Source: Escherichia phage ECCR664. From it: 64,000 nucleotides of DNA. The stretch lies in sequence record OL631257.1; one strand, 5' to 3'. Positions 5,944 to 54,480 of the stretch are shown here, piece after piece. The notes below the pieces were generated by a model. That model was not told where the DNA came from. It made no database searches and saw only the letters and a list, made by a program, of their open reading frames with translations. How positions within the stretch are numbered: position 1 is the first letter of the stretch; each line of letters starts with the position of its first letter. The position numbers and the translations under genes were made by a program.

Positions 5944-7069
5944 ATGGAAAAATTTATGGCTAAGTTTGGACAAGGATACGTCCAAACGCCGTTTTTATCG
6001 GAAAGCAATTCAGTACGATTTAAATTAAGCATAGCGGGCTCTTGCCCGCTATCAACATCTCCTGCTTATATTAAGTTCCAGGATAATCCACTTGGGTCTC
6101 AGGTTTTTCCGTTGGATTAAACGTTCGTGTAATAAACCCTACAACAGGTACAGTAGTTGAATCTAAGACATATAATTTCTCTACTGAAAACGACACCACG
6201 TCAAGTGCATTTGTTACTTTCATGGACACATATGCTTCAAATTTTATATTTGCTCTTGTTACTAACGCTAAAACAAACTTTCCACCTGAAGTTCTTGCAT
6301 GGTTTAATAAAGCCGGAAGTTCTGTTATTCCATTAGCTCAACAAGTTTTAAATATAGTGGACATTTCTTATTCGGCATTTTATATTTCTGGTAAGAATGC
6401 TATAGCACTAGAACATATTAAGTATAGTAATAAGAAGACTTCAACCGACTATAGTACACCACTTGATGTTGTGTATGACACGATAGATGATATCGGTGCT
6501 ACGGGCTTCCCTAGTCGTACGTATGAATCGTCAGACACATTTTTATCTGCCGTTGGAGGTACTAATAATGAAATTAAAGGATGCCTACAACATCTCTTAT
6601 TACACCTCTCGCCGGGTATAAATTGAAGCCTGGAGATTTCCTTTATATGAAATTCCAACTAATGGCCGATGTCGATTTGTTAGCACAAGGGACGACACGA
6701 CTTTCTATTCGTTTCTTTAAATCTCCTTCTACTTCACCTATTTCATTTAAGGATACAAACTTTGATGGGGCTGCAGGTGAATGGAAGATATATGAAGACT
6801 ATATAGAAATTCCTGCTGGTGCTGACGGGTTCACGATTTATTGTTATCGTACAGCTCCAGTCGGGCAAGGTGGATTAAGAAACGTTATATTCACTGAAGT
6901 ATCATGTAATGGAAGCGTTTCAAAACCTGCCGAGTTTGGTGTAAATGGTATTCGTGTAAATTATGTTTCAGAATCTTTAAGTGCCCCAGACATAATGACA
7001 TTACCTACTCAATCTTCAACTGATACTGGTAAGGTGTTTGGGCAAGAATTTAAAGAAGCATCAGAATAA
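5944..7069 (+). CDS. 35: gp35 long tail fibre hinge protein (frameshifted)
   Basis: Starts MEKFMAKFGQGYVQTPFLSESNSVRFKLSIAGSCPLS; fragments 6222-6626 and 6581-7069 continue gp35-like sequence; ~374 codons. Confidence 0.8.
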
Positions 7070-40292: not shown

Positions 40293-40596
40293 ATTTCCTC
40301 GCAAAATGCCCATTCAGCGTGATAAACTGTAGCACCTTTAGTATCATTCATTTGAACTACGTCTACCGGAGAAATTACTCGATAGAGACGTGGTTCACCT
40401 CCATAAGAGCGTGCTGCTCGTCCTGCATAAATCTTTGCTAAACCGATATCTTCAGTAAAGAATACACGATTCAAGTTTTTCTTACGTCCAATTTCAGACA
40501 GAACTCCTGTTTCTTCAGGAGGACAAAGCATATTTTCGATGTTAGCTGAACTACTTGAACCATGATAAAAATCTTAAATTCTGCTTTACAATCGAT
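40280..40596 (-). CDS. Hypothetical protein (~105 aa, one frameshift) with YHG(S) motif
   Basis: MKTIDCKAEFKIF..YHGSSSSANIE then ORF 40280-40531; preceded by early promoter at about 40620-40660. Confidence 0.3.
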
Positions 40597-40660
40597 GGTT
40601 TTCATTTTGTTCTCCAGTAGTTGATAGGTCTATAATAACACAACTACTGGAGAAGTAAAC

Positions 40661-41068
40661 TTAAAAATGTAATTTAGATATATCTGCGTTGATTTCGTTT
40701 TGGTTTGCGTCGTATGCAATTAAACGAACCGCTTTAGATGGGTCATTCAATGCATAGAAATGATGGAACATTGCTCGAACGATATCGCCATTTACAAGTT
40801 CTACCTGGATAGGAGAACCTTTTTCGAGTTGGAAATGTTCATAAGCTTTGATGGTTCGCAGATAATCAAGTTTTTGATTTCCGGCTCCAACAATTTGTAC
40901 GATACGTTTGCCCATGTTTTCCATACGAGATACAATAGTTTTAGGAGCAAGAATAACGTAGGTTGCCAGCGGAGAAACTACTTCAACAGTTGTGTTTTCG
41001 GTGATTGCAGTAAAATTGCTTGAGACATATTCATAATGTTTTCCTCTTGGTTGGTGTAAGTACATCAT
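40661..41068 (-). CDS. Hypothetical protein (135 aa)
   Basis: Intact ORF directly downstream of gene 41. Confidence 0.4.
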   Translation of the reverse strand: MMYLHQPRGKHYEYVSSNFTAITENTTVEVVSPLATYVILAPKTIVSRMENMGKRIVQIVGAGNQKLDYLRTIKAYEHFQLEKGSPIQVELVNGDIVRAMFHHFYALNDPSKAVRLIAYDANQNEINADISKLHF

Positions 41069-41090
41069 ATCATGCCTAGAGGAAGATGTA

Positions 41091-41106
41091 AACCCCGAAA
41101 GGAGAC
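41091..41106 (-). terminator. UUCG-tetraloop hairpin downstream of gene 41
   Basis: ggagac-cgaa-gtctcc; minus strand reads GGAGAC-UUCG-GUCUCC with a weak U tract. Confidence 0.45.
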
Positions 41107-41121
41107 CGAAGTCTCCTTTTA

Positions 41122-42562
41122 TTAAAATTTTAACTCATTGGCTAAGCTATCTAGGTCAGCACGTGTTGCTTTGGCTTTACCTACGCGTTCCGTACGATTC
41201 ACCTCTGCCTGACGCATCTGAGCACCTGCGTTTTCATTTACTGTGTTAGGTGTGTTCATGCCTTCTTGCTCAATCTCAACCCATTTCTGATTGCCTTTAC
41301 GTACACCCATCAAGAACTTGTTCCACTTATTCTTATCACCATATCGTGATTTGATTTGTTTGATAAGTTGTTGTTCAGCTTGTGCAAGTTCTTCAGTTTC
41401 AATTACAGCCAACATGAAATCTGCCGTTGCTGGTAAACCTGCTGATTCTGCAATATCGCTCATGTTCATGTCTGAAGCATCCCATGCTGCACGTCCTACT
41501 TGAGCTGCAGTCCATAGAACTGTTTCAGATTCTACTGCTAATGCACGAAGTTCTTCTGCGATAGCTTTAACTAATGTGTAACTATTTTCAGTGTAAACTC
41601 TGATACGACAAGACCCACAAATACCTAAGTAATCGACTATAATTACAGACGGCACAAAGTTCTTCTTGAGTTTCAATTCATTAAGCAATGCACGGAATGT
41701 ATTAGCATTAGCTCCGCCAGTAGGATACTGTTTGACTACTAAACGTCCTAATGTGGATTTTGAACGCCATTTTTCCATCTTGGCTTTATATTCAGCATAA
41801 GATACGTTACCATCATCGATATCATCAAGTGATACGTCAAGCATGTTTGCATCTATACGCTTAGCACAAACTTCTTCAGCCATTTCCATGGAAATATAAA
41901 GAACATTATGTCCTGTTTGAAGATAATCTGCAGCAAGTGAACAAAGGCCTAAAGATTTACCAACGTTAACACCTGCCATTAAAACATTCAGTGTACCGGT
42001 TTCAGCACCACCTTTGGTGATTTTATTCAGAATGTTTAATTTGAACGGGACCTTACGTGCTTTATTTAGATAAGAAAGCCAGCGTGCTTCATAGTCTTCC
42101 ATCCAGTCATGACCAACATAACTATCAAACGAAATTGAAAGTGCTTGACGCATAATATCAGGAATAGCTCCTACGTCAGGCATTTTCTTGTTACGTTGTT
42201 CTGGAGGTAGTTCAGCATTAGACTGAATCTCAATGATTTTGGATGTAGCATTATACATCGCTTTTGCTGGACATATTTCTCAGTTTCTTTAACCAACCAT
42301 TCGTGGTCTTCAGGAGTGTCAGCCAATTTTTCAATTAGGTCTGAAGTTCCTTTATATTCGGCTTCAGTTAAAGAACTGTTATCTAAAGCCACCTTTAATG
42401 CATTGATAGATGGCATTGCATTATATTCGTTAACGTGGCTCTTTATAATTTTAAAGACATTTTTGCCGGTCCACGCTCAAAATACTCAGAATCCATATAA
42501 GGCCAGACCTTAGAAAAATAAGCCTGGTCGTATACGAGATGAGACAAAATAATTTCTACCAC
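41122..42562 (-). CDS. 41: gp41 replicative DNA helicase (DnaB-like; frameshifted near N-terminus)
   Basis: N-terminal VVEIILSHLVYDQAYFSKVWPYMDSEYFE.GPAK; 378-aa fragment with Walker A GVNVGKS and ...IIVDYLGICGSCRIRVY...; ends ...DSLANELKF as in T4. Confidence 0.85.
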
Positions 42563-42911
42563 GATAACTCCTTAAAAGAATTTAAATTTTTCTTGGTTCG
42601 TTCATTAAAAGCTTGTTGTACCTGCATTGTAACACATTTTTCAACATGTGGTGCAAGTTCTGCTTTTCTGTCCTGGTCAAGAACTGCAAAGTCCATTACG
42701 ATTTTACCATCAACCCAGTCTAGTTTTGTAATATAGACTATATGATGGGAACCGTCTTCAAGTGTAATCAGAATCTCTTGAATGACATTTTCCATTGCTG
42801 AACGGATAATTTTAAGAGATTCATTAAACACTCGTTCTTTGCGAATGTCTTCCCTTCCGAAGAAGGGGATTCATCAACGATTTCTAGATTTAAATCATCG
42901 AGATTATTCAT
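42556..42911 (-). CDS. 40: gp40 head vertex assembly chaperone (one frameshift)
   Basis: Starts MNNLDDLNLEIVDESPSSEGKTFAKNE then continues as ORF 42556-42831; position between uvsX and 41. Confidence 0.55.
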
Positions 42912-44074
42912 CGAAATCTTCCATTTCGTCAAGGTCGTTTTCAATATCTGCTGCAGACGGAGCATCAGAAGCTTTAACCGGAACTTTAGTTGTTGCTTTG
43001 CAATTAATAAGGTCGTTAACAGCGTCATCAACTTCTTTAATAGAAGAGATAGCACCTAGTTTATATTTAGTTTCAATTGCATCTCGGAAAGGTTTGTGTT
43101 TAAACAACGGCCCCCAGAATTCTACGCAATCAGTAGCTTTAGCACGCCATGATTTCTCTTCACGAATCATTTCACCTGTTTCTTCGTCAAGGAATTCACG
43201 AGCATACCAACCAGCTTTAGGTTTAACCACAAAACCAATTTCAGTTGCCATTTCTAACAAGCCACTGAATGGGTCAATACCGCCATCAAAATTAACCGTG
43301 ATTGGGAAAGTAGATTTCTCTTTAACTGTACGAGATTTTTCTGCTTTCAACGTGAAGTCATAACCGGTCAATTCTGTACCTTCTTTAACCTGACGTTTAG
43401 AGATAAAAATACTGTGTTAGCAGAATAAAGAATACCTGTACCACCGCCCATAATCTCTTTAGGATATAGTCCGCCGATTTCCATTGCTGTATGGTTGATT
43501 GCAACACATGGAATATCTTTAATAGTCAGATACGGGGTTACAATACGGAAAAGAGATTTAAGTGCCTTAGCACGAGACATATCACCTACGACTTTCTCGT
43601 TCAATGCATCTTCGGTTTCTTTCTTAGATGCAGTGTTACCGATTGAATCGATAAAGATAATAACTTTATCACCGCGTTCAATCGCGTCAAGCTGATTAGT
43701 CATATCAACTTTAAGTTGTTCGACGGACTGAATTGGTGTATGAACTACACGGTCTAAATCAACACCCATTGAACGGAAGTAAGATTCTGAAGCACCGAAT
43801 TCTGAGTCATAGAACAAACAGATTGCATCTTTATATTTCTTCATATACGCTGCAACCATAGTTAGTCCAAACAATGTTTTAAAATGTTTAGAAGGTGCAG
43901 CAAAATAGTCAAGCCTGATTGCAATCCTGCATTCAGAGCACCACCTAGTGCAATATTCAACATCGGAATACGAGTAGGGACTTCATCACGATTATTAAAC
44001 AGCTTAGACTTAGTCAAGTCTGCAGTCATTTTAGAAGTAGAAGCTTTAATCAGACGAGATTTTAAATCAGACAT
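42904..44074 (-). CDS. uvsX: UvsX recombinase (RecA-like; two frameshifts)
   Basis: Three consecutive fragments (43862-44074, 43368-43874, 42904-43371) giving ~390 codons; acidic C-terminus DLDEMEDFDE. Confidence 0.85.
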
Positions 44075-44173
44075 TGTATTTTTCCATAGGCATCATTATA
44101 TTTTACTCATGTTTAAAAGATAAGATGATTATATACTAAGAGTTATACAGCATTTAAAACTTTAAACAGGCTC

Positions 44174-44722
44174 TTAACGAGCCCATTTGATAATTTCTGT
44201 AATCAAATTATTACGTTCGCTTGCATTAAATCCTATAACTTTGTTAGCACCATCATGATTAAGTAATTGATACGTTTGGATTTTGTTATGAATTGCAAAC
44301 TCTTCAAAATGTGAAATGACTGTATTAAAACCGAATGAAGACAAAGTAATAAGATCGTCTTCAAAACTTTCAGTCATTTCGTTACGTGTTAAAATAATTG
44401 TGAACACATCATGGTTTTGGCAAAGACGAATATAATCCTGTTCATAAACGTCAAGAACCGAGTCCGCATCTTGTCGAATACGTCCATAAACCCAGTTACT
44501 AATATATCCACGGTCTAACAGATAAATCTTAGTAGGGTCTAAATAATTCAACATCGTTTCGAAACAGCCAACTTCATTTCGAGACTTAACATCGAAACGT
44601 CCATCAACTGTTCGTTTAGGGAAATCAATCTTTACATATCTTTCACTAATTTCCATTATGTCATTAATGAAAGTTGTTTTACCAGCATTATCCGGTCCGT
44701 CTACTAAAATAATTTTAGCCAT
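44174..44722 (-). CDS. P-loop nucleotide kinase (thymidylate-kinase-like)
   Basis: Walker A VDGPDNAGKTT at N-terminus and LLDRGYISNWVYG (DR motif); occupies the site of beta-gt in T4. Confidence 0.55.
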   Translation of the reverse strand: MAKIILVDGPDNAGKTTFINDIMEISERYVKIDFPKRTVDGRFDVKSRNEVGCFETMLNYLDPTKIYLLDRGYISNWVYGRIRQDADSVLDVYEQDYIRLCQNHDVFTIILTRNEMTESFEDDLITLSSFGFNTVISHFEEFAIHNKIQTYQLLNHDGANKVIGFNASERNNLITEIIKWAR

Positions 44723-44723
44723 T

Positions 44724-45623
44724 TTATTCCTCGATTACGACATCTTCGTATTTAGGTATATTATACGGTGAAGAAATTAAAGCATTAAAGTAGATGAACT
44801 CACCAAGACCTGGATGGAATACTTCTTCAGGATTTTCGAAATATTGAATCTTCGGACGTCCTTTAAGAATTTGATAGTACTCAGTTTTAGTTGGATTAAA
44901 AATTCGAATCAGCGCTTCTTCGGGATACTTATTTCTGTCGAAACTATTATTTGGATCAGTTATATAAAGCGGTTGACCTAATTGAATTGCGCATTCAACC
45001 ACTTGTTCAAAACGATAGCATGGGTCACTAATTCGAAATGGATGAAAAATACCATCTAGATGAATAGGAGCCAAATCACCTACAAGACGCTGCATGACGG
45101 AAGGACGTATAACTTTCTGCGTTACGATAATCTTATTACCATCTGCACCTGCGTTAACCAGCACTTCTTTTTGACGTTCATTCAACACAGTAGTTTGAAG
45201 TGAACGATTAACCGACAACATATCGGTTTTTAAGAATTCGTCAATATAAAAACGTGGTTTATTAGGGTCTGCAGTGATATTGAAATTGAATTCCACATCA
45301 AAAGCGCCGTCATATCCGGTGATATCTGTGATTAGAAAATCACAATCATAATAAGCAATTAATGAATCAACCACAAATTCATTTTCAGACCAGAAATATT
45401 TACGAGTGTTATACGCGTTATCTTTATACCATAATGGAACAAACTTAAATTCTGGGAAAAGACGTTCACATTCTTTAATATCGGATGCATTACGTGGATA
45501 TGTAATCACATCACCTGGATTAGCACGGTGCAAATGAAGTTGGAAGTTGCCATCCTTAAGGATAGCATACTGTCCAGTTTCATAAGACCGCATACTCAAG
45601 ATTGGTACGCGGAAAATAGCCAT
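44724..45623 (-). CDS. Hypothetical protein (299 aa) in the gene-42 operon
   Basis: Intact ORF, tightly packed between the kinase and gene 42 (1-nt spacers/overlaps); no motif recognised. Confidence 0.4.
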   Translation of the reverse strand: MAIFRVPILSMRSYETGQYAILKDGNFQLHLHRANPGDVITYPRNASDIKECERLFPEFKFVPLWYKDNAYNTRKYFWSENEFVVDSLIAYYDCDFLITDITGYDGAFDVEFNFNITADPNKPRFYIDEFLKTDMLSVNRSLQTTVLNERQKEVLVNAGADGNKIIVTQKVIRPSVMQRLVGDLAPIHLDGIFHPFRISDPCYRFEQVVECAIQLGQPLYITDPNNSFDRNKYPEEALIRIFNPTKTEYYQILKGRPKIQYFENPEEVFHPGLGEFIYFNALISSPYNIPKYEDVVIEE

Positions 45624-46339
45624 TAGTCAAGGAATCCTTTAACATAATCAAAATCACGTTCAAACACATGGGCACTTACCATGGTATGAGTATAATCACC
45701 AACTTCTACACCACATTCGTTAGCGATATAATGAAGTAATTTTCCTTGGAGATAAAAATCCAACTGCATAACAACAGCACAGTTCTGAGAACGCATATGA
45801 CAGTGGGTATAAAGCTTACCATCACGAATATAATAAGTCACTGAGTCAGTACATGGATATTCAAGTGTTTCGTCCGAATCAAGCAAAGCCTGATCAGAAC
45901 TTTCTAGAATTTGGAACACAACTCTTCGAGAGTTAGGTTTCTCTTTAAGTTCTTTTAGAAGAGCTGGTAATTGGGCCACAATGCGAGGACCGTAGAAAGT
46001 GTTGAAGTTCGCCGGCAAAACATCTGATTTTGGTTTAGAAATAAATTTAGCGACATTAGGATATGCCTTAAACGCTTCTTCTGCGTTGGTACCACCAGAA
46101 ATCATAAACTTCCAGAAGTCTTCGGCATATTCATAAGAGATGCGGTTAATACGTGGGTCGGTCATTTTGAATGATGATGGAGTGTCAACAACTACTGTCA
46201 TGGACCCGATTTCATTACAACGTCCAATACGAGAATCAGTTACGAATTCGGGGTTTTCTAAAATTTCACGATTGACTGCTTTAAATGCGGCTTGAAAATC
46301 TGCGGCTTTGATATATTTCATTGTGTTATGTTTTCCCAT
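45623..46339 (-). CDS. 42: gp42 dCMP hydroxymethylase (thymidylate-synthase family)
   Basis: ...YPCTDSVTYYIRDGKLYTHCHMRSQNCAVVMQLDFYLQ... aligns with the T4 gp42 active-site region (CT..V.Y.IRD......MRS.D). Confidence 0.7.
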   Translation of the reverse strand: MGKHNTMKYIKAADFQAAFKAVNREILENPEFVTDSRIGRCNEIGSMTVVVDTPSSFKMTDPRINRISYEYAEDFWKFMISGGTNAEEAFKAYPNVAKFISKPKSDVLPANFNTFYGPRIVAQLPALLKELKEKPNSRRVVFQILESSDQALLDSDETLEYPCTDSVTYYIRDGKLYTHCHMRSQNCAVVMQLDFYLQGKLLHYIANECGVEVGDYTHTMVSAHVFERDFDYVKGFLD

Positions 46340-46621
46340 GTTTACCTCAATACAATTTATTATATACTCAATTCGTAAAGCTTATTTGAATTTCTTGGCA
46401 ATGTTGATATAACGTAAAGCTTCAGAATCTATACTTCCAAGAACACTATGAAGGAATGCATCAGTGTAGTATTCCAATTGAACAGGTTCTTTAATCACTT
46501 TAGCCGCTTTGGTTTCAAACAGGCCCATAAGGGCCTTTTAAGAATTTGTTCGTTAGTGTTCAGTTTTATAGTCAAAATCTCTTCATTAAGTTTATAATTA
46601 AAAGTTTTTCTAGAAATCATT

Positions 46622-47774
46622 CCGGGTACCTCAAAGCGTCATCAGAGTTAGTTATATCAATAATAGATATAGAGTTTTCTGATAACCCATTTTTAGATAA
46701 CTGACGTTTATAATATCTTTCACAATATGTACACGTCGTCCCGCAGATTTCATTAGCACAATCGAAATCTGGATGTCTGAACCACCTTTTTCTAAAAAGC
46801 CATCTAACAAAGAGGTTTCAATATTTACTGTATGTGAAAACTCAGTCTCATTTTCAAGAGTGAAAATAGTCTCTAAAGGCTTCCACAGTTCTAACAAATT
46901 ACCTTCAAACTTTTCAGAAGCGTATGCTTCAAGAACTTTCAAAATGTAGTCGGTGCTACCTGTACGTCCTGAAACTTTGAATTGAGTGATACCAATATCA
47001 TTATAAAGTTTCAAATCTTGAGGACGAACAAAACGAGTTCTCAACCAGTTAAATGGGTCTGTATCACGAGCTTTAATACAGTGCTGCATAGGATATCCGT
47101 TTAAGGATTTAGCATCATCAGCTGTAACATCAGTACTATGGAAAATATAGCAAGAGTCACGATAGCTACAATGTGTTGTATACCCTTTACCAGCATTAGA
47201 ACAGAACTCATTTACAAGAACTTCAAATATTATATTGTTCTTATTGCAAAACTCTGCTGCACGCTTCAGGAAAGAAACTGAACGGTTCTTATGAATTCCG
47301 CAGCAGACTTTTTTGATGTTATATTGGTCGTGCAAGTATTTGATTTGAGTTACAGCATCAACATGTAGAATTGTTGAAACTTCAATCTCAATGTCTTTAT
47401 TGACTTCACGAACAATTTCCATAACAACAGGGTTAGCGATAGTAATACGCCATACGCCTATTGACCAAAGATACTGAACATAATCCTGAATAGCTTTCTT
47501 CTTCCACTCAACTAGTTCTCTTTTGAACCAGGATTTATCGTGTTGAGTGTATAGTTAAAGCAAATACCTAATTCGTTACAACGTTTAACGTAGTCTTCTA
47601 ACATCTTTTGTCAACGTCAGGAAGCCTAAAATCAGGTCTGGCTGCTACAAAAGCCATTTCTCTTGTAGAACCATATACTTCGTTTATCAAGCTATTAGGA
47701 TAGGTTTTATTGAGCTCTACGATTTTATCAAGAAGAGCTAAATCAAAATTCGTTCCGATTTTAAAAGTATTCAT
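46622..47774 (-). CDS. Hypothetical protein (~380 aa, at least two frame breaks); Cys-rich C-terminal segment
   Basis: N-terminal MNTFKIGTNFDLALLDKIVELNK...; 256-aa fragment 46652-47422; an alternative frame near the 3' end encodes ...FDCANEICGTTCTYCERYYK (CxxxCxxC). Confidence 0.35.
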
Positions 47775-47828
47775 TTTTGCATCTCGCGTTAATTGATGCG
47801 ATGGTTTTTGCAGGTCTTACTTAAATTA

Positions 47829-48230
47829 TTATAGATTCGGTTTATACGATTTAAATGTTTCGAATTCGCCTTTATTCATAAGAGCTTTGAATTCGTCAGG
47901 ACGCATAGCTTTGTCGTCGATAATCCAATCATATACTGGTTTATGTGTTAGCAAATTATGGTACTTCAAACCAATGTTTTCCAAGTTCTGAATCAGACTT
48001 GGGAGAATGTCAATTGCTATACGACCAGGACCTACCGACTTCATACCACGAGCCGTGTAAAGCGTTATGGTATGCCCTGCATCATACAGGGCATTAATGG
48101 CGGACACCATTTCGACGTCTGGTTTGAAGTTCACGTAATCACGATTGTTATTCCACTCTGTTATACAATCATCGACATCAAAACAAAGATTAAGCATGTT
48201 TTCTACACGGTGCATTAGATTCGTTCCCAT
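47829..48230 (-). CDS. HAD-superfamily phosphatase
   Basis: Motif I LCFDVDDCIT, motif II ...TLYTARG, motif IV WIIDDK; true start probably the internal Met MLNLCFDVDD. Confidence 0.55.
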   Translation of the reverse strand: MGTNLMHRVENMLNLCFDVDDCITEWNNNRDYVNFKPDVEMVSAINALYDAGHTITLYTARGMKSVGPGRIAIDILPSLIQNLENIGLKYHNLLTHKPVYDWIIDDKAMRPDEFKALMNKGEFETFKSYKPNL

Positions 48231-48285
48231 TGATGAGTGATATCGCCACCGATTGGACGATAGGAAACACCAGTTTCTTTATCAG

Positions 48286-49104
48286 TTAGTACCCATTTAC
48301 CAGGATTTTTGTAATCAGAGTAGCCGTTACAGGTTCTGCTACGTCATAACTAATAGAGCCGTCCTGAAGTACACGGCCCATGTTACGTAATTGCTTAGTC
48401 AGAAGTTCCATGCCTTTATAATATGCGGCTACCGCTTTAAGTGGATTATTCTTGAAATAACCACCTAATGCAATCCAGATAATTGCTACTGCCAAATGAT
48501 GATACTCGTTAAACGAACTCATCTTTCCATATTTGTAAACTAGTGGATTGATGTTAATAGTCACATTACAAGTTGTTTCATCAATAATAAACTGGCCCCA
48601 GGTCGGATTAGCGTTGAATTCATCATAACCTGAAACAGCATAAAGCACTTTAGCTTCATCATACAATTTTGGCCCGTAAATCTTGGTTTCACCAAAATAT
48701 CCACGAGGGTCGATAAACTTGACTTCGCCGTTATCAGTAATCATGGTATTACTGAAGTTCGGGTCACCGTGAATAACAGAGTACTGTCCCTGAGAACGGT
48801 TATGATAACGAATAAGGTGTTCTAAAGCTTGTTTCAACATTGGCTTCAGACGTCCAATCTTAGTGTAGTTCACACGTGTGATTTTACCAAATGAATCAAT
48901 CAATGGTTGAATGCTTTCACAACGATCAATAACTTTCGTATAGAATTCTTTAGTGAAATCACGACGAACAGTTTCAGGACTTACAAAATAAGCGTCTGTG
49001 CTGAATTTCAGTGCATCTAAAATTGCATCAACAATTTGTGGACGAGCAAGACTTGATTTGGATTTAATATATTCAAATGCTGGCTTACCTTTAATACGTT
49101 CCAT
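48286..49104 (-). CDS. Kinase of the aminoglycoside-phosphotransferase / choline-kinase fold (putative sugar kinase)
   Basis: Brenner-type catalytic motif VIHGDPNFSNTMI followed by KFIDPRGYFGE. Confidence 0.55.
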   Translation of the reverse strand: MERIKGKPAFEYIKSKSSLARPQIVDAILDALKFSTDAYFVSPETVRRDFTKEFYTKVIDRCESIQPLIDSFGKITRVNYTKIGRLKPMLKQALEHLIRYHNRSQGQYSVIHGDPNFSNTMITDNGEVKFIDPRGYFGETKIYGPKLYDEAKVLYAVSGYDEFNANPTWGQFIIDETTCNVTININPLVYKYGKMSSFNEYHHLAVAIIWIALGGYFKNNPLKAVAAYYKGMELLTKQLRNMGRVLQDGSISYDVAEPVTATLITKILVNGY

Positions 49105-49130
49105 AATAAAGTGGCCGCCAGGATGATAAC

Positions 49131-49900
49131 TTACAATCCGTGGAACTGAATCTGATTTAACTTTCTTATACCAATTGACTTCATCTTTTGAAGTGCAACG
49201 CCCTGTTCTGTTAAAGCAATCTTTGTTACCGTTTCTTCGCCAATTTCAACTGCATTAAAACTACGATTAAGTTCACGAACTTCATGAGCTTTTTCAAGTT
49301 TAGGCATATCACCAAGGTCGATGATATTCATAAGCTCTGATTTATTGAATGCGCCGCTGTAAAGGAATTCTACAAAATCACGTCCTTTGCAGTATTCGTG
49401 AATTTCCTCATCAGTAGAACCCATGTAGAATTCCCAGTCTTTGAACTGATAAATTCCTACAACATTACCGCCTGTTGAACCTACGTTAGTGATATTTTCA
49501 CCATCGAAATTATATCGACATTCATCACCTTTAACATAGATTGCGTTAACATTCCAAGACCATGAACCAAAATCAGGAATAATATCACACCAGTTAACAA
49601 CTACGTTATGGCCGTCTAAATCTTTATGTAATTTAGCAAGAGCATAAGCAGAACCATACGCTTCATCAACTGTACGAATAGTCACATTGAACCCTTCTTG
49701 CTCACAATAAGCTCGAACGGTTTCAGCAAATTTTGAATGAACTACTACAATAATTTCATCTGCGCCAAGGTCAGAATAAATTGTGTACAAATTGCTCAGA
49801 ATAGTGTCTTGTTTATAGTTCACAAGAACTTTTGGAATATGGTGAGTAATTGGATATAAACGAGTTGCCAATCCAGCACCAAGAATAACAGCTTTTTCAT
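49131..49900 (-). CDS. Sugar-phosphate nucleotidyltransferase (frameshifted near N-terminus)
   Basis: After frame repair N-terminus reads MKKAVILGAGLATRLYPIT, the G-x-G-T-R-L-x-P-x-T nucleotidyltransferase signature; 246-aa fragment 49131-49871. Confidence 0.6.
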
Positions 49901-49941
49901 GTTGAAGTCCTCATTGGTAAGTAGGTGTATTGTACACTATT

Positions 49942-50085
49942 CTAGTTAAAGCATTCATACTTTGCCTGTAGACCAATCATAATCCATCCAATTACAAGTG
50001 TTGGAATCATTACTGGAGCCGTTAAGCTCCAGTAGATAGTCATGACAAGCATCAATAGTAAAAGTCCTATTGTTATTGCTTTCAT
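49942..50085 (-). CDS. Small membrane protein (47 aa), position of T4 imm
   Basis: MKAITIGLLLLMLVMTIYWSLTAPVMIPTLVIGWIMIGLQAKYECFN; ATGA overlap with the SIS gene stop. Confidence 0.35.
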   Translation of the reverse strand: MKAITIGLLLLMLVMTIYWSLTAPVMIPTLVIGWIMIGLQAKYECFN

Positions 50086-50716
50086 TGTTCGCCTCGTAAC
50101 ATGGCACCTAGTGCACCGCCAGGGTGGAACTTAAGGAAGTCATTAGAGGTAAATCCACGTTCAGACGAAAGGTTGATAGCGAACGTATCGATAAGCGCTA
50201 ACAACAATGTAGTGGACATTGTCGGAGCTAAAGAGTTCTCGTCGACTTCCACCGCGATACCGGTACAGAACGTATAATCAAAAGAGCTTCGTATTCTTGC
50301 GGAATGTCAGGGTTACAATGTAACAGAATCTGTTTAACCTGAGGACGAATCATACGAAGATGTTTAGCAACACCTATCATTTCTTCAGTCTTACCAGAAC
50401 GACTAATATGAATCAACACATCATTAGGCGCAATGAATCCTGCATCACCGTGAGAATAATGCCCGGTGTTCAAGTACATACTCGGGATACCGAGTGAAGC
50501 AAATGTCTCAGAAGCTTTAGTTGCGATATTAGCGTTCTTACCAACACCTGTAATAATTACACGACTTTCATAATTACTCAGTCCAGGGCGTCGAAGAGTT
50601 TCTAGAATAGCATTATAACGAGCAGGGTTTTGACTAATTACTTTAGCCATGGTGGCAAGAGATGAAGCTTGTTTTACGATTGCGTCAATAGCGATAGTGA
50701 TTGGTGTAGTTTTCAT
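50082..50716 (-). CDS. SIS-domain sugar-phosphate isomerase (KdsD/GutQ-like; one frameshift)
   Basis: ...ITGVGKNANIATKASETFASLGIPSMYLN...VLIHISRSGKTEEM and, after frame repair, C-terminal ...FHPGGALGAML. Confidence 0.6.
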
Positions 50717-50756
50717 ATTTCTCTCATTTAATTAGTTGGCCGTCCTTGGCATTATA

Positions 50757-53466
50757 TCAAAAATCGAACATATCGAACAGAGATGCTTTCTTCTCGTAAT
50801 CGAGTTTCGCTGCTGATGTGAATCCTTCAAGTGGTTTAATAAATGTCTTCTCAAGGAGAACCGTGTAGTCCATCCAATGAAGTACGTCGTCTTTAATTAA
50901 ATCTGTGATTTCAGTACCAGAAGGCCATGCGATACATTTATCACCGAATGGGTTTCCTTCACGTAAAGGCAGAACATATACTTTTTCACCTTCTACAACT
51001 TGTGGTGCATCAATATTACCTTTAATAGCCCGGTTATACGTCAGAATTCCACGAATATGGAACGGGCATTTGGGACCAGGGAATCCACCAACGTCATATT
51101 TAGCAATGTTATTCGCAGAAGATACCGACGCAATGCTAATATAATTCAATTGACGGAATTCTTTTTCAAACTCTTTAAAATATTCTTGTAATGATTCTTC
51201 ACCTTCTTGAAGCATACGACGAATACATTCTTTAAGAGCTTTCTGTACCGCTTTAGGAGTTGAAGATTTCTGTGTTTCGAGACCCATGATTTTGAGTTTA
51301 GGCTCAGCGTAACGAGTACCTTCCATATCCCACACGTTTAATGCATAACGTTTCTTACCAGTCCAGAATCCGCCAATACCTTTAGAACCGAGCGGAGGAC
51401 CAGCGATAGCTTCTCGGTCCATGAACATCAAATGTTGCTTATTATTCATGTATTCGCACATTTCACGGAAACCTCTATCAATAGCTGGTTCCATACGTTC
51501 ACGTGCAAACTTATCTAAGAAGTCTACCCAATGGTTGGTATCACGGAATTTAGATTCACCAACCTTATCAATAATTTTATCAGCAGATACGTAAATAGAG
51601 TCTGTATCACCATAAAGAACGAAAGCTTCACCTTCTGTACCACAAACTTCATTCAGATATTCATTAACTTTACGTTCAATCCACTGTAAAGCCATTTGAC
51701 CAAATGTTGTGATTGCAGTAGCATTACGCAAATCGTAATAACGGAACCAAACGTTGCCAAGTGCACCATAAAGTGAGTTGATAAGCAATTTACGGTTAAT
51801 TTGTGCAGTCATACCTGCAACTTCAGTACGTTGAGCTCTAAACAACATTTCATTAAGAGATTTAGCAGACAACTTTTTAATCTTTTCTTTAATCTCATCA
51901 GTGAAGTCGAAACGATAATCAACATCTAATGGTTCGTCAACAGAAAGATTAGGATTATGCAATGCCTCTTTAATTATTTCACCATTACGTTGAGCTGCAA
52001 GCATGTAACCTTTATGTTCTTTACGTTGATTAAAGACCTTAGTGATTTCAGTTGGAACTACACCGTCACGGTCTTTATAATACATCATGCCGTTAGGAGA
52101 GCAACTGTACACATCAGAAGGACGTTCAGCAACAGCGTTAATATAATCATGCAGTGGAGCTACTTTAAACGTTCCTGCTATTGTTTCTGGGCTAATATTC
52201 ACTTGGCGAATAATACTTGGATACAGAGATGTAAGGTCGAAACTCATTACATATTTGTATCGATTTGGAATAGGTTCCTTAACAAAAGCGCCAGGATAAG
52301 GTTGAACCGGGTGAGAACGACCTTGTGGAATCACCTTGTTTTGTTCTTTAAGGCTATTAAAAATAATAGCATCCCATGTTTTAATTGGGCTAAACACAGA
52401 TTGAATCTGTATCTTAGCATAATAACCCATGTCCAAACTCAAGTTGATGAACTGACGCTTAGCATCAATTTGCAATACACGATACACGTCGATAATGTTA
52501 TAAGAAATATATCGTTGGTGATTGCTTTCACGAAGCTTAGAAATAGGACCGTCATATTTCAGTTTACCGACATTCAATTCAAATTCTGAAATGTAATCCA
52601 GAGAATACGACGGTTGATTGGTAAAGAGAATTTTTGTAAAGGTCAATGTAATCAAGAACAGAGATACCGAACAATGTAATGATTTCACGAGAACCATACA
52701 TGTTTTCGATAACTTTAACACGAGTTTTACGATGTGGTGATAAACGTTTCGCAGTAGATTCGCCAAAAATATTTTTGATTCGGTTATACACATATGGAAT
52801 ATCAAATGACTCAACGTTCCATCCAGTCAAAATGACAGGAGTTTTCTGTTGCCAGAAGTTGAGATATTCCATCAACAATTCTTTTTCGTTATCGAACGGC
52901 ATATAAATGATTTTATCAATAATTTCGGATGGAACTTCATCACCACCTTGTTCTTGAAGCTTAGCTGCAATTTCGATAGACCATTCTTCTACATTACCAT
53001 ATGGAGAATTCAATAGATCAAATACGTAGAACCTGTCGTCAATTGAGTCATAATGGGTGATAGCATCAATCGGATGTTTTGCTTGTGACGGCTCAGGAAA
53101 CCCATCCGGAGATGTTACTTCGATGTCGAAGTTAGCCACACGAATTTTTGTATGGACGTATTTGATTTCATAGTTATAAGTGTCAGACAAATACGCTAAT
53201 TTGAAATCGTCCATGCCAAGTGCTTCAAGTCCGATATCTTCCATGCGTTTAATCCATTGGGAGGCATCACGCATATTAGCGAACAACTTACGAGTACATG
53301 GCTTACCGTAGATATCGAAATATTTCGTAGCCTGACTTTCCGGACAATGAGCAAACAGTGATGGTTTATATTCTACTTCACGAGTACGTTCACGGCCATT
53401 AGAATCGATGTAACGTTCAAAAATTGAATCACCAATCTGTTCAACCGTTAAGTAAAATTCTTTCAT
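50757..53466 (-). CDS. 43: gp43 DNA polymerase (family B; one frameshift near 52600)
   Basis: N-terminal exonuclease fragment 52579-53466 (MKEFYLTVEQIGDSIFERYIDSNG...FDIEV...) and polymerase fragment 50757-52814 (...SLYPSII..., ...YGDTDS..., ends ...KKASLFDMFDF); ~903 codons. Confidence 0.9.
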
Positions 53467-53524
53467 TTAATTTCCTTTAGACGAGTTATTGTCTTTTGTT
53501 TGTTGATGAACTTATTATACTCCA

Positions 53525-53544
53525 AATGGGACCGAAGTCCCATT
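53525..53544 (-). terminator. UUCG-tetraloop hairpin between regA and gene 43
   Basis: aatgggac-cgaa-gtcccatt (8-bp stem); weak U tract, so it may be an RNA structure rather than a strong terminator. Confidence 0.4.
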
Positions 53545-53547
53545 GCT

Positions 53548-53916
53548 TTAATTACCAATTGTATATTTTGCTTTCAAAGTCCAGTCATCTTTCTGTTTAA
53601 AAGAGATAACACGGAAGTTATTAGTCAAGCCAAACAGATCTTCACGAGCAGAGTCTTCAATAACAATTAATCCCCAGTCTTCAAGCAACTGAGCGATCGA
53701 ATCACGTCGCTGATAGTCTTCACCATCGATATCAACTTGTCGTCCGTCCATACGCAGCATTTCTTTAAAGTGGACGATGTAGTATTTACCTTGCTTTTGG
53801 AGGATATGACAGGACTGATAAAGAACTTTATCCTTGTTATTAGCGATGCCCATACGGGTCAAAGTCTCTTTGACTTTCAGAAAATCTTCAGGGTTCTTCA
53901 ATTTAATTTCAATCAT
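53548..53916 (-). CDS. regA: RegA translational repressor
   Basis: Start at MIEIKLKNPEDFLKVKETLTRMGIANNKDKVLYQSCHILQK; 122 aa as in T4. Confidence 0.85.
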   Translation of the reverse strand: MIEIKLKNPEDFLKVKETLTRMGIANNKDKVLYQSCHILQKQGKYYIVHFKEMLRMDGRQVDIDGEDYQRRDSIAQLLEDWGLIVIEDSAREDLFGLTNNFRVISFKQKDDWTLKAKYTIGN

Positions 53917-54480
53917 TTTTACCATTCCAATGCTAATTTTTAAATTGTTTTTGTTCTTTTACGTTTTTAGTAACTTCTTTGAGAAACTCATCAGTGACCA
54001 TGGCCTTCAGTTCTTTAAGGACTATTGGCAACTTGTTATTTTTTCAAGGAGCCGCTTATACTCGGTAGCATCATTCATGTTGATTGTGTAATGTTTCATC
54101 AACAGTTTGATAACTAGTAACTCTGAAGTGTCTTCGACTAGTTTAGCCCATTTAGAGAATCGACGACCACGCGGAATTGCCGCCATCATATAGTTGAAGT
54201 GCGCTTCATCACTTAATTCAGAACCGACTAAGTTCATCATGTAAACGGCTGGCATACATTCTGGGAACTGGGATAGTGAGTTCTCAACCATAAATTTTGA
54301 GTAGTCGACCTGAGCAATTGACATAGATTTCTTTTCATTAATAGCATTAATGATTTTAAAGAATTCATTCTCAGGTTTTTCTTTAAACATATCAGCACAT
54401 TTTTGAATCGCATCAGCGTCATTAGACTTCCATGCAATTTGGTGCTCGTTAAGCTGGACGTCATCATCGAATAAGTTCAT
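53917..54480 (-). CDS. 62: gp62 clamp-loader small subunit (one frameshift near 54030; 3' end approximate)
   Basis: [35 protein letters not shown]...[30 protein letters not shown]..., T4 gp62-like. Confidence 0.75.

Follow-up and report, generated by a model that had tools for sequence, protein, structure and literature searches.

The present analysis concerns a gene on the minus strand of a 64,000-nucleotide stretch of Escherichia phage ECCR664 (record OL631257.1; this whole stretch is hereafter called the window, with coordinates counted from its first letter), which is the homologue of ORF050c/gp50 of phage RB69 and encodes a protein of the U32 family. Our proposal, held with slightly better than even confidence, is that gp50 hydroxylates cytosine C5 independently of O2 and in dependence on prephenate; its product would then be glycosylated by the same pathway as that of the neighbouring enzyme gp48. 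The DNA of RB69 carries arabinosylated 5-hydroxycytosine (PMC13326640), and gp48 makes 5-hydroxy-deoxycytidine monophosphate (5-hydroxy-dCMP) with a bound flavin and with oxygen coming from O2, as seen by 18O2 labelling (PMC13326640). In the same work gp50 (RB69p050) is solely an entry of Table 1, 'Sugar or heterocycle reductase'; two tRNA pyrimidine hydroxylation pathways are discussed there as unrelated to the new synthase, and gp50 is not connected to them (PMC13326640). The gene, its family name and the published cluster are already known, whereas the functional assignment and the association of phage U32 genes with chorismate mutase and 3-deoxy-D-arabino-heptulosonate 7-phosphate (DAHP) synthase were found in none of the papers searched. 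The family, the fold, the conserved residues, the gene neighbourhoods and the distribution of the protein are matters of observation.

The U32 gene runs from an ATG at 47774 to a TGA at 46617-46619. In the unrepaired sequence, the list of open reading frames (ORFs) holds only pieces of it, namely 58 amino acids (aa) at 47598-47774 and 256 aa at 46652-47422; upon translation in three frames the pieces join up across shifted frames, the last one holding the peptide FDCANEICGTTCTYCERYYK. Alignment with phage ATK47 divides the coding region into four frame segments separated by three single-base deletions, and each change of frame corresponds to one A missing from a run of five or six (A5 or A6). 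Restoring one A per site gives an ORF of 386 aa, which from its fourth residue on is 100% identical to ATK47 YP_010088436. An earlier, sequence-only reading of the window had placed a gene of about 380 aa at 46622-47774; the gene is real and lies on the minus strand, but its end is at 46617. That reading had also noticed a Cys-rich peptide in an alternative frame, leaving it unclear whether it belongs to the protein. The peptide at 46707-46766 does differ in frame from the longest ORF, and since it comes into frame with the repair, as residues 338-357 of the 386-aa ORF, it is part of the protein; intact relatives translate this frame as well, contrary to the outcome that would have refuted the earlier reading. 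The features of the gene are as follows (residue numbers here and below are those of ATK47).

46617..47774, minus strand: U32-family gene, homologue of RB69 ORF050c/gp50, 386 aa after repair of three homopolymer deletions
47606..47609, minus strand: frameshift site 1, A4 in the window versus A5 in relatives (T-run on the plus strand)
47521..47524, minus strand: frameshift site 2, A4 in the window versus A5 in relatives (T-run on the plus strand)
46787..46791, minus strand: frameshift site 3, A5 in the window versus A6 in relatives (T-run on the plus strand), throwing the Cys-rich C-terminus out of frame
47078..47224, minus strand: U32 motif region EVLVNEFC...THCSYRDSCY...YPMQHC, from profile alignment and conservation
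46707..46766, minus strand: C-terminal four-Cys segment FDCANEICGTTCTYCERYYK, with Cys343/348/352/355

A Megablast search with the gene region matched 185 phage records, headed by Mosigvirus (RB69-like) coliphages at ~98% identity, and the source phage of the window is an RB69-like Mosigvirus. The frame errors are artefacts and not a property of this gene, and their type recurs across the window: over the 13.6 kb aligned to ATK47, some twenty more single-base losses from A or T runs were found, with uvsX and the vicinity of the DNA polymerase gene among the places hit. Because the same homopolymer deletions strike across the window, we take the three U32 frameshifts to be sequencing or assembly errors. 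Three frameshifts within a single gene could likewise indicate a true pseudogene in this isolate, but this is very improbable, as each of the three is the loss of a single base from an A5 or A6 run, essential genes across the window suffer from the same type of error, the protein is, indels aside, 100% identical to its intact relatives, and the gene is intact in 221 phage records. Programmed frameshifting, or A-runs acting as a contingency locus, was considered and rejected because the same deletions occur in essential genes across the window. Deletions in runs of five to six A or T are present throughout positions 40400-54000 (for example at 53936, 52630, 50279, 49892, 48305, 43901, 42586, 42261, 41011 and 40566) and split many ORFs, uvsX included, as if homopolymers had been under-called in this record. 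Where the nucleotidyltransferase and kinase ORFs meet (49129-49221), there is a patch of many small indels in comparison to ATK47; in the RB69 record, a sequencing error was reported at the gp52:53 kinase/nucleotidyltransferase gene (PMC13326640).

Whereas the sequence-only reading found no assignable motif, the repaired protein matches Pfam Peptidase_U32 (PF01136) with an E-value of 7.8e-11 and 42.1 bits against a gathering cut-off of 22.4; peptidase U32, which the same reading had listed among the families worth a search, is therefore the correct one, as borne out by Pfam as well as by profile and fold comparison. The phage-family match of the protein is PHROG 5757. Comparing the phage-family profile with a small RlhA/TrhP/UbiU profile, hhalign returned a probability of 96.5% and an E-value of 7.8e-10 over 282 columns. 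The structure prediction that had been called for, made with AlphaFold2, is confident (predicted local distance difference test, pLDDT, 92.8), and fold searches identify a U32, TIM-barrel-like fold and not that of a radical S-adenosylmethionine (SAM) enzyme. The archaeal U32 'peptidase' MK0906 (PDB 5d88; 12% identity, 247 aa), in which the C-terminal Cys domain is absent, was found by fold search alone, and a PDB sequence search with the U32 protein yielded nothing useful. In NCBIfam there was no match to the RlhA or TrhP equivalogs, and UbiU alone appeared, with 18.4 bits versus a cut-off of 440. A search of 1.84 billion cluster representatives retrieved 494 relatives at E<=1e-30; even with the limit relaxed to E<=1e-3, this profile search of the whole library yields no more than 1,722, which marks a subfamily separate from the RlhA, TrhP, UbiU and UbiV groups. 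In long family members, DUF2621 tails and one intein are the only fusions found; the intein (~370 aa) splits the subfamily member P0187 (699 aa), which is without the C-terminal four-Cys site.

The U32 motif region holds Glu188/Glu193, Cys195, Cys206, Cys212 and Cys236. In the hhalign comparison, Cys206 and Cys212 align with the two Cys of the U32 motif, the shared 'C-Y' included, and Cys236 aligns with the third canonical iron-sulfur (Fe-S) ligand, the spacing being Cys206-x5-Cys212-x23-Cys236; a conserved Glu (188 or 193) aligns with the essential Glu of the motif, and the K-x-x-G-R of the phage family with the K-I-E-G-R strand of the RlhA/TrhP/UbiU profile. Residues E161, C169 and C176 of RlhA as well as E162, C170 and C177 of TrhP are essential (PMC6599085), and the Fe-S ligands of UbiU are C169, C176, C193 and C232 (PMC6747719). 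Ten cysteines are invariant or nearly so among 121 close relatives, in which Glu188/Glu193, Cys206 and Cys212 are invariant; among 128 full-length representatives of the deep family, down to 23% identity, Cys195, Cys206 and Cys236 are 99-100% conserved (Cys206 100%, Cys195 99%), Cys212 is conserved in 59% and Glu188 in 75-90%. Cys195, Cys206, Cys212 and Cys236 are putative ligands of a [4Fe-4S] cluster, with Cys195 as candidate substitute for the fourth ligand. Most database records would make the protein a protease of the collagenase/PrtC type instead, in line with the family name and with many GenBank labels ('peptidase', 'putative protease of the collagenase family'). Yet characterised U32 members are Fe-S proteins in hydroxylation (PMC10990095, PMC6599085, PMC6747719), the conserved residues here are the cysteines of Fe-S-like motifs, and the gene is set among others for the metabolism of nucleotides and sugars, near early genes such as those of DNA polymerase and UvsX, all of which leaves a proteolytic function with very little credit.

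The four C-terminal cysteines are located C-terminal to the U32 TIM barrel. They are invariant in the 121 close relatives and 94-95% conserved in the 128 deep-family representatives, and their spacing varies among relatives (C-x3/4-C-x2/3-C-x2-C), so that the CxxxCxxC described earlier is not a fixed motif, there being four Cys with variable spacing. Because four in-frame cysteines are conserved in close and deep relatives, it is plausible that they form a metal or Fe-S site, which would putatively be the second of the protein, and that the cassette includes a redox step, much as the sequence-only reading had supposed; its radical-SAM-like cluster, on the other hand, does not hold. For a radical SAM enzyme, in which CxxxCxxC would bind the SAM-cleaving [4Fe-4S] cluster, one could point to the spacing of the last three Cys in the window (CGTTCTYC) and to the aromatic residue preceding the last one. 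The repaired protein, however, gives no match to Pfam Radical_SAM even at E<=1, the Cys motif follows a complete U32 barrel and is not an N-terminal CX3CX2C, the second and third Cys are spaced by two or three residues in relatives with the fourth Cys always present, and the fold is that of U32; this possibility is hardly credible.

On the minus strand of the window the order of genes is nucleotidyltransferase, kinase, HAD phosphatase, U32, gp49, thymidylate-synthase homologue, glycosyltransferase, Tmk-like kinase and UvsX. This is the order of the RB69 gp53-gp45 block, i.e. an arabinosyl-5-hydroxycytosine cluster of the RB69/HY126/LC53 type, whose sugar genes were assigned in RB69 by analogy with the HY126 phage proteins AfhE and AfhF (PMC13326640).

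48286..49871, minus strand: sugar kinase (48286-49104) and nucleotidyltransferase (49131-49871), RB69 gp52:53, AfhE-like, a single fused gene in relatives
47829..48230, minus strand: HAD phosphatase, RB69 gp51, AfhF-like (homology; PMC13326640)
46382..46620, minus strand: gp49 homologue, a conserved ORF of 79 aa, with its own frameshift at the T-run 46536-46539 and its ATG overlapping the U32 stop (ATGA)
45623..46339, minus strand: thymidylate-synthase homologue, counterpart of RB69 gp48 (homology; function from PMC13326640)
44724..45623, minus strand: glycosyltransferase, homologue of RB69 gp46:47, predicted arabinosyltransferase 1 (homology; PMC13326640)
44174..44722, minus strand: thymidylate-kinase-like (Tmk-like) nucleotide kinase, RB69 gp45 (homology; PMC13326640 Table 1)

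No homology of the U32 protein to ThyA or gp48 was found, fold and Pfam family being different. In Erwinia phage Virsaitis27 (L008:5352-5990) a gene for a Seg-like homing endonuclease lies between the HAD phosphatase and U32.

Outside the Straboviridae, U32 loci were grouped into 33 clusters at 90% U32 identity and their neighbours were counted within 10 kb. A homologue of the gp46:47 glycosyltransferase is found near U32 in 21 of these clusters, a Tmk-like kinase in 19, the arabinose kinase/nucleotidyltransferase in 12 and arabinose-5-phosphate isomerase in nine; the thymidylate-synthase homologue occurs within that distance in just one of the 33. Frequently the order in such distant phages is MazG-like nucleoside triphosphate (NTP) pyrophosphatase, kinase, glycosyltransferase, U32 and DnaE polymerase, and loci retrieved with the synthase as query have the same glycosyltransferase and kinase adjoining the synthase, with or without U32. 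Judged by gene content, the layout in distant phages is that of a T4-type base-replacement pathway with U32 in the place usually taken by the thymidylate-synthase homologue.

A role in the sugar branch, with the enzyme acting on the pentose donor and not on the base, either as the 'sugar or heterocycle reductase' or in UDP-arabinose biosynthesis, could be argued from the position of U32, flanked in the cassette by the HAD phosphatase on one side and the base-modifying enzyme on the other, from the name given to RB69p050 (PMC13326640 Table 1), from the annotation of the BASEL phage AlbertHofmann ('putative enzyme involved in UDP-arabinose biosynthesis') and from the 12 distant clusters with the arabinose kinase/nucleotidyltransferase. 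Acinetobacter phage Maestro and Dhakavirus Bp7, however, contain the arabinose genes, the synthase and the glycosyltransferase, and lack U32; because they have all other genes without it, U32 is dispensable for the activation or transfer of arabinose and an optional member of the cluster, the 57 synthase-bearing Acinetobacter phages being likewise cases of DNA-arabinosylating phages with every sugar gene but no U32. At least seven U32 clusters show the reverse, the glycosyltransferase, kinase and MazG being present and the arabinose activation genes absent. Moreover, the route from arabinose-5-phosphate (A5P) via Ara-1,5-P2 and Ara-1-P to UDP-Araf has no redox step (PMC13326640), and the presence of chorismate mutase and DAHP synthase genes beside U32 would go unexplained, which makes a function in the sugar branch unlikely.

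Several further observations were made on the contigs of distant phages. The gp46:47-like glycosyltransferase is fused to the Tmk-like kinase in proteins of 550-606 aa (L032:2594-4411, L040:5240-7060, L046:5360-7012). On jumbo-phage contigs (L002:9447-10004; L003:4203-4733 and 6358-6942), genes for dCMP deaminase, dUTPase/DCD, a MazG-like protein and several members of the uracil-DNA glycosylase (UDG) family surround U32; the DnaE polymerase of these contigs is split or intein-bearing, and the hydroxylated base may be cytosine or uracil. A family of 283-aa ORFs upstream of U32 in synthase-less phages was considered as a divergent thymidylate synthase and rejected, the proteins being Zn-finger, single-stranded-DNA-binding-like with an acidic tail. 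U32 relatives of 44-49% identity are also carried on contigs of metagenome-assembled genomes or isolates (L107, L109, L112, L113, L114; e.g. L114:3044-7137) from Phocaeicola faecalis, BRC1, Tannerella and a Woesearchaeota bin. Here the conserved block is a different one, in which a GP88-family protein, a guanylate-kinase/SAM-methyltransferase fusion and a 265-280-aa protein precede U32, with an NT5C deoxynucleotidase and a PnuC-like transporter downstream of the block in L107; the composition of this block hints at a possible nucleotide hydroxylation followed by O-methylation.

Contextual support for a dependence on prephenate comes from the gene next to U32. Among the 221 U32-bearing phage records, two label the gene after U32 as chorismate mutase, and Pfam CM_2 confirms both (38.5 and 44.6 bits vs. 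a cut-off of 27). With a local profile, a CM_2 chorismate mutase was found in 15 of 18 Straboviridae loci, directly after U32 or gp49 and before the thymidylate-synthase homologue; the three loci without it are two of Mosigvirus and that of Klebsiella phage Marfa. Conversely, all 54 phage records with this chorismate mutase are U32/synthase clusters of that kind. On contigs of unrelated metagenomic phages, whose U32 has only 45-55% identity, the adjoining gene likewise codes for chorismate mutase, for DAHP synthase of the Bacillus type or for the two fused, this synthase scoring 216 bits with the DAHP model and 63 with that of 3-deoxy-D-manno-octulosonate 8-phosphate (KDO8P) synthase. Our local DAHP synthase hidden Markov model was seeded with fusion proteins and also matches proteins consisting of chorismate mutase only; true DAHP synthases were hence counted by Pfam/NCBIfam or fitting length (L003, L026, L035-L037, L044 and L105). 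They stand alone or fused to chorismate mutase at L035:8411-9433, L037:7302-8357, L044:11076-12194, L105:6928-7956 and L003:11145-11891. By their predicted products, the DAHP synthase genes on phage or phage-like contigs are shikimate-pathway auxiliary genes in viruses. The product of chorismate mutase is prephenate. RlhA and TrhP require prephenate (PMC6599085), and for UbiU/UbiV it is the oxygen donor (PMC10990095). In the literature we found no link of phage U32 or chorismate mutase to 5-hydroxycytosine, recent papers that may address gp50 not being covered.

As to gp49, the possibility that it is a hidden chorismate mutase was rejected, since it has no Pfam match and an hhalign probability of 0.2% against the chorismate mutase profile. 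Yersinia phage TG1 and Pectobacterium phage PM2 are among those that have both gp49 and the chorismate mutase, and the N-terminus of gp49 is similar to the N-terminal extension of the 114-aa chorismate mutase of Winklervirus.

The closest comparison is RlhA (YdcP), the E. coli factor for 5-hydroxycytidine at C2501 of 23S rRNA, which shares with the phage protein the U32 domain, the essential Glu and two Cys, and whose hydroxylation of cytosine C5, the same atom as proposed for gp50, is prephenate-dependent and iron-linked (PMC6599085). In contrast, RlhA has 653 aa with extra domains and an rRNA target, while the phage protein has 386 aa and is found in a DNA-precursor context; in the latter, the loop before the first Cys is five residues longer, and Cys195 and the C-terminal four-Cys site are additional. 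TrhP (YegQ) backs up the O2-dependent TrhO in forming 5-hydroxyuridine (ho5U) at position 34 of tRNA (PMC6599085), which is the logic that we propose for gp50 and gp48. It differs in its tRNA uridine substrate and in its Peptidase_U32_C domain, absent from phage U32, and its O2-dependent partner is a rhodanese (TrhO), that of the phage being a flavin-binding thymidylate-synthase homologue. UbiU and UbiV are U32 proteins with four-Cys [4Fe-4S] clusters, which act as O2-independent hydroxylases in the biosynthesis of ubiquinone, with prephenate as oxygen donor (PMC10990095, PMC6747719). UbiU and phage U32 have in common the x-x-A-R after the third ligand and the lack of a CX3C partner; unlike phage U32, UbiU/UbiV form a heterodimer, act on a lipid aromatic ring and have the accessory protein UbiT, and the phage protein stays far below the UbiU cut-off mentioned above. 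The 5hodCMP synthases of RB69 (gp48) and HY126 share with gp50 the proposed product, 5-hydroxy-dCMP, and the same glycosyltransferase and Tmk-like kinase as neighbours, but gp48 uses flavin and O2 and is unrelated to U32 in fold and cofactor, so that U32 would be an analogue and no homologue of it.

Given these relatives, it could be supposed that the phage protein hydroxylates RNA as RlhA and TrhP do, making 5-hydroxycytidine (ho5C) or ho5U in host or phage tRNA or rRNA and thereby tuning translation, its location among DNA-modification genes being coincidental. Of single E. coli proteins compared by profile, RlhA matches best, and T4-like phages carry tRNA genes. Furthermore, rRNA C2501 and tRNA U34 are the only known targets of pyrimidine hydroxylation by U32 proteins (PMC10990095, PMC6599085). 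On the other side, the RlhA and TrhP equivalog models are unmatched, the phage protein is without the large C-terminal regions of RlhA and TrhP (the latter 453 aa), and DNA glycosyltransferase, nucleotide kinase and NTP pyrophosphatase adjoin U32 even in very distant phages. We regard an RNA substrate as improbable, slightly more so than a role in the sugar branch, and on balance lean towards gp50 being an enzyme of the U32 hydroxylase type, which was recruited to viral DNA-precursor synthesis and to which a C-terminal four-Cys site was added.

The substrate of gp50, its use of prephenate, its metal content and its anaerobic role are what we infer. The substrate is probably dCMP and less likely DNA, since U32 is accompanied by genes for dedicated nucleotide kinases and NTP pyrophosphatases. 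Prephenate would give the hydroxyl oxygen to cytosine C5, as proposed for RlhA, TrhP and UbiU/UbiV, with one or two Fe-S clusters of gp50 taking electrons away. Since O2 is its oxygen source, gp48 would be idle without it, and gp50 would cover anoxic conditions, providing 5-hydroxy-dCMP for arabinosyl-5-hydroxycytosine DNA in the anoxic host. Such a pairing of gp48 and gp50 would resemble TrhO/TrhP, UbiIHF/UbiUV and NrdAB/NrdDG.

The distribution of U32 weakly suggests such an anaerobic role. In a protein search of the phage collection, the gene was found in 221 records, with an identity to the query of 80% or more in every case and with Enterobacterales or Shewanella as hosts throughout. Both are facultative anaerobes. 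The synthase was found in 373 phage records at 30-70% identity, 57 Acinetobacter and 20 Rhizobium phages included, and a U32 of matching divergence was found in none of these synthase-bearing Acinetobacter and Rhizobium phages. Among species-representative genomes, contigs carrying close U32 relatives fall into bins of Romboutsia, Oscillospiraceae, Erysipelotrichales, Gastranaerophilaceae, Tannerella and Phocaeicola, gut anaerobes among them; several of these contigs have U32 next to the chorismate mutase and glycosyltransferase seen elsewhere.

A number of points weigh against gp50 as an anaerobic hydroxylase and call for general caution. In-vitro proof that any U32 protein is itself the hydroxylase does not exist so far (PMC10990095), and the known U32 pyrimidine hydroxylations act on RNA polymers, as stated above. 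The fourth canonical Cys, the CX3/4C partner, is missing from phage U32, as it is from UbiU. Mosigvirus, the very genus of the window phage, has lost the chorismate mutase and kept only gp49. The absence of the synthase from distant U32 loci covers only 10 kb to either side of U32 and a pattern scan. Finally, the correlation with hosts is incomplete, as E. coli is also the host of Dhakaviruses, which lack U32, and it is based on few independent lineages and on bins, which are not hosts.

Regarding the family as a whole, we consider it possible, at somewhat less than an even chance, that phage U32 proteins are a large unrecognised class of prephenate-using, O2-independent hydroxylases of pyrimidine deoxynucleotides, whose supply of prephenate is often boosted by a phage chorismate mutase or DAHP synthase; they would be the backup to 5hodCMP synthase in RB69-like phages and the sole source of 5-hydroxypyrimidine in phages of strict anaerobes. 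Even if this interpretation is wrong, the gene would, by its conserved cysteines, still encode a conserved Fe-S-type protein of a well-studied phage. Base synthesis that depends on O2 leaves the question of how gut phages make their sole form of cytosine in an anoxic host; if true, the proposed function would answer it, together with that of the role of gp50, and would explain the chorismate mutase and DAHP synthase genes in phages. It would predict O2-dependent differences in host range or fitness between genera, for example Mosigvirus and Dhakavirus, with a bearing on phage therapy in the gut. Not least, with gp50 the U32 family would gain its first enzyme acting on a small soluble compound, a nucleotide, which would make the chemistry of the family accessible in vitro.

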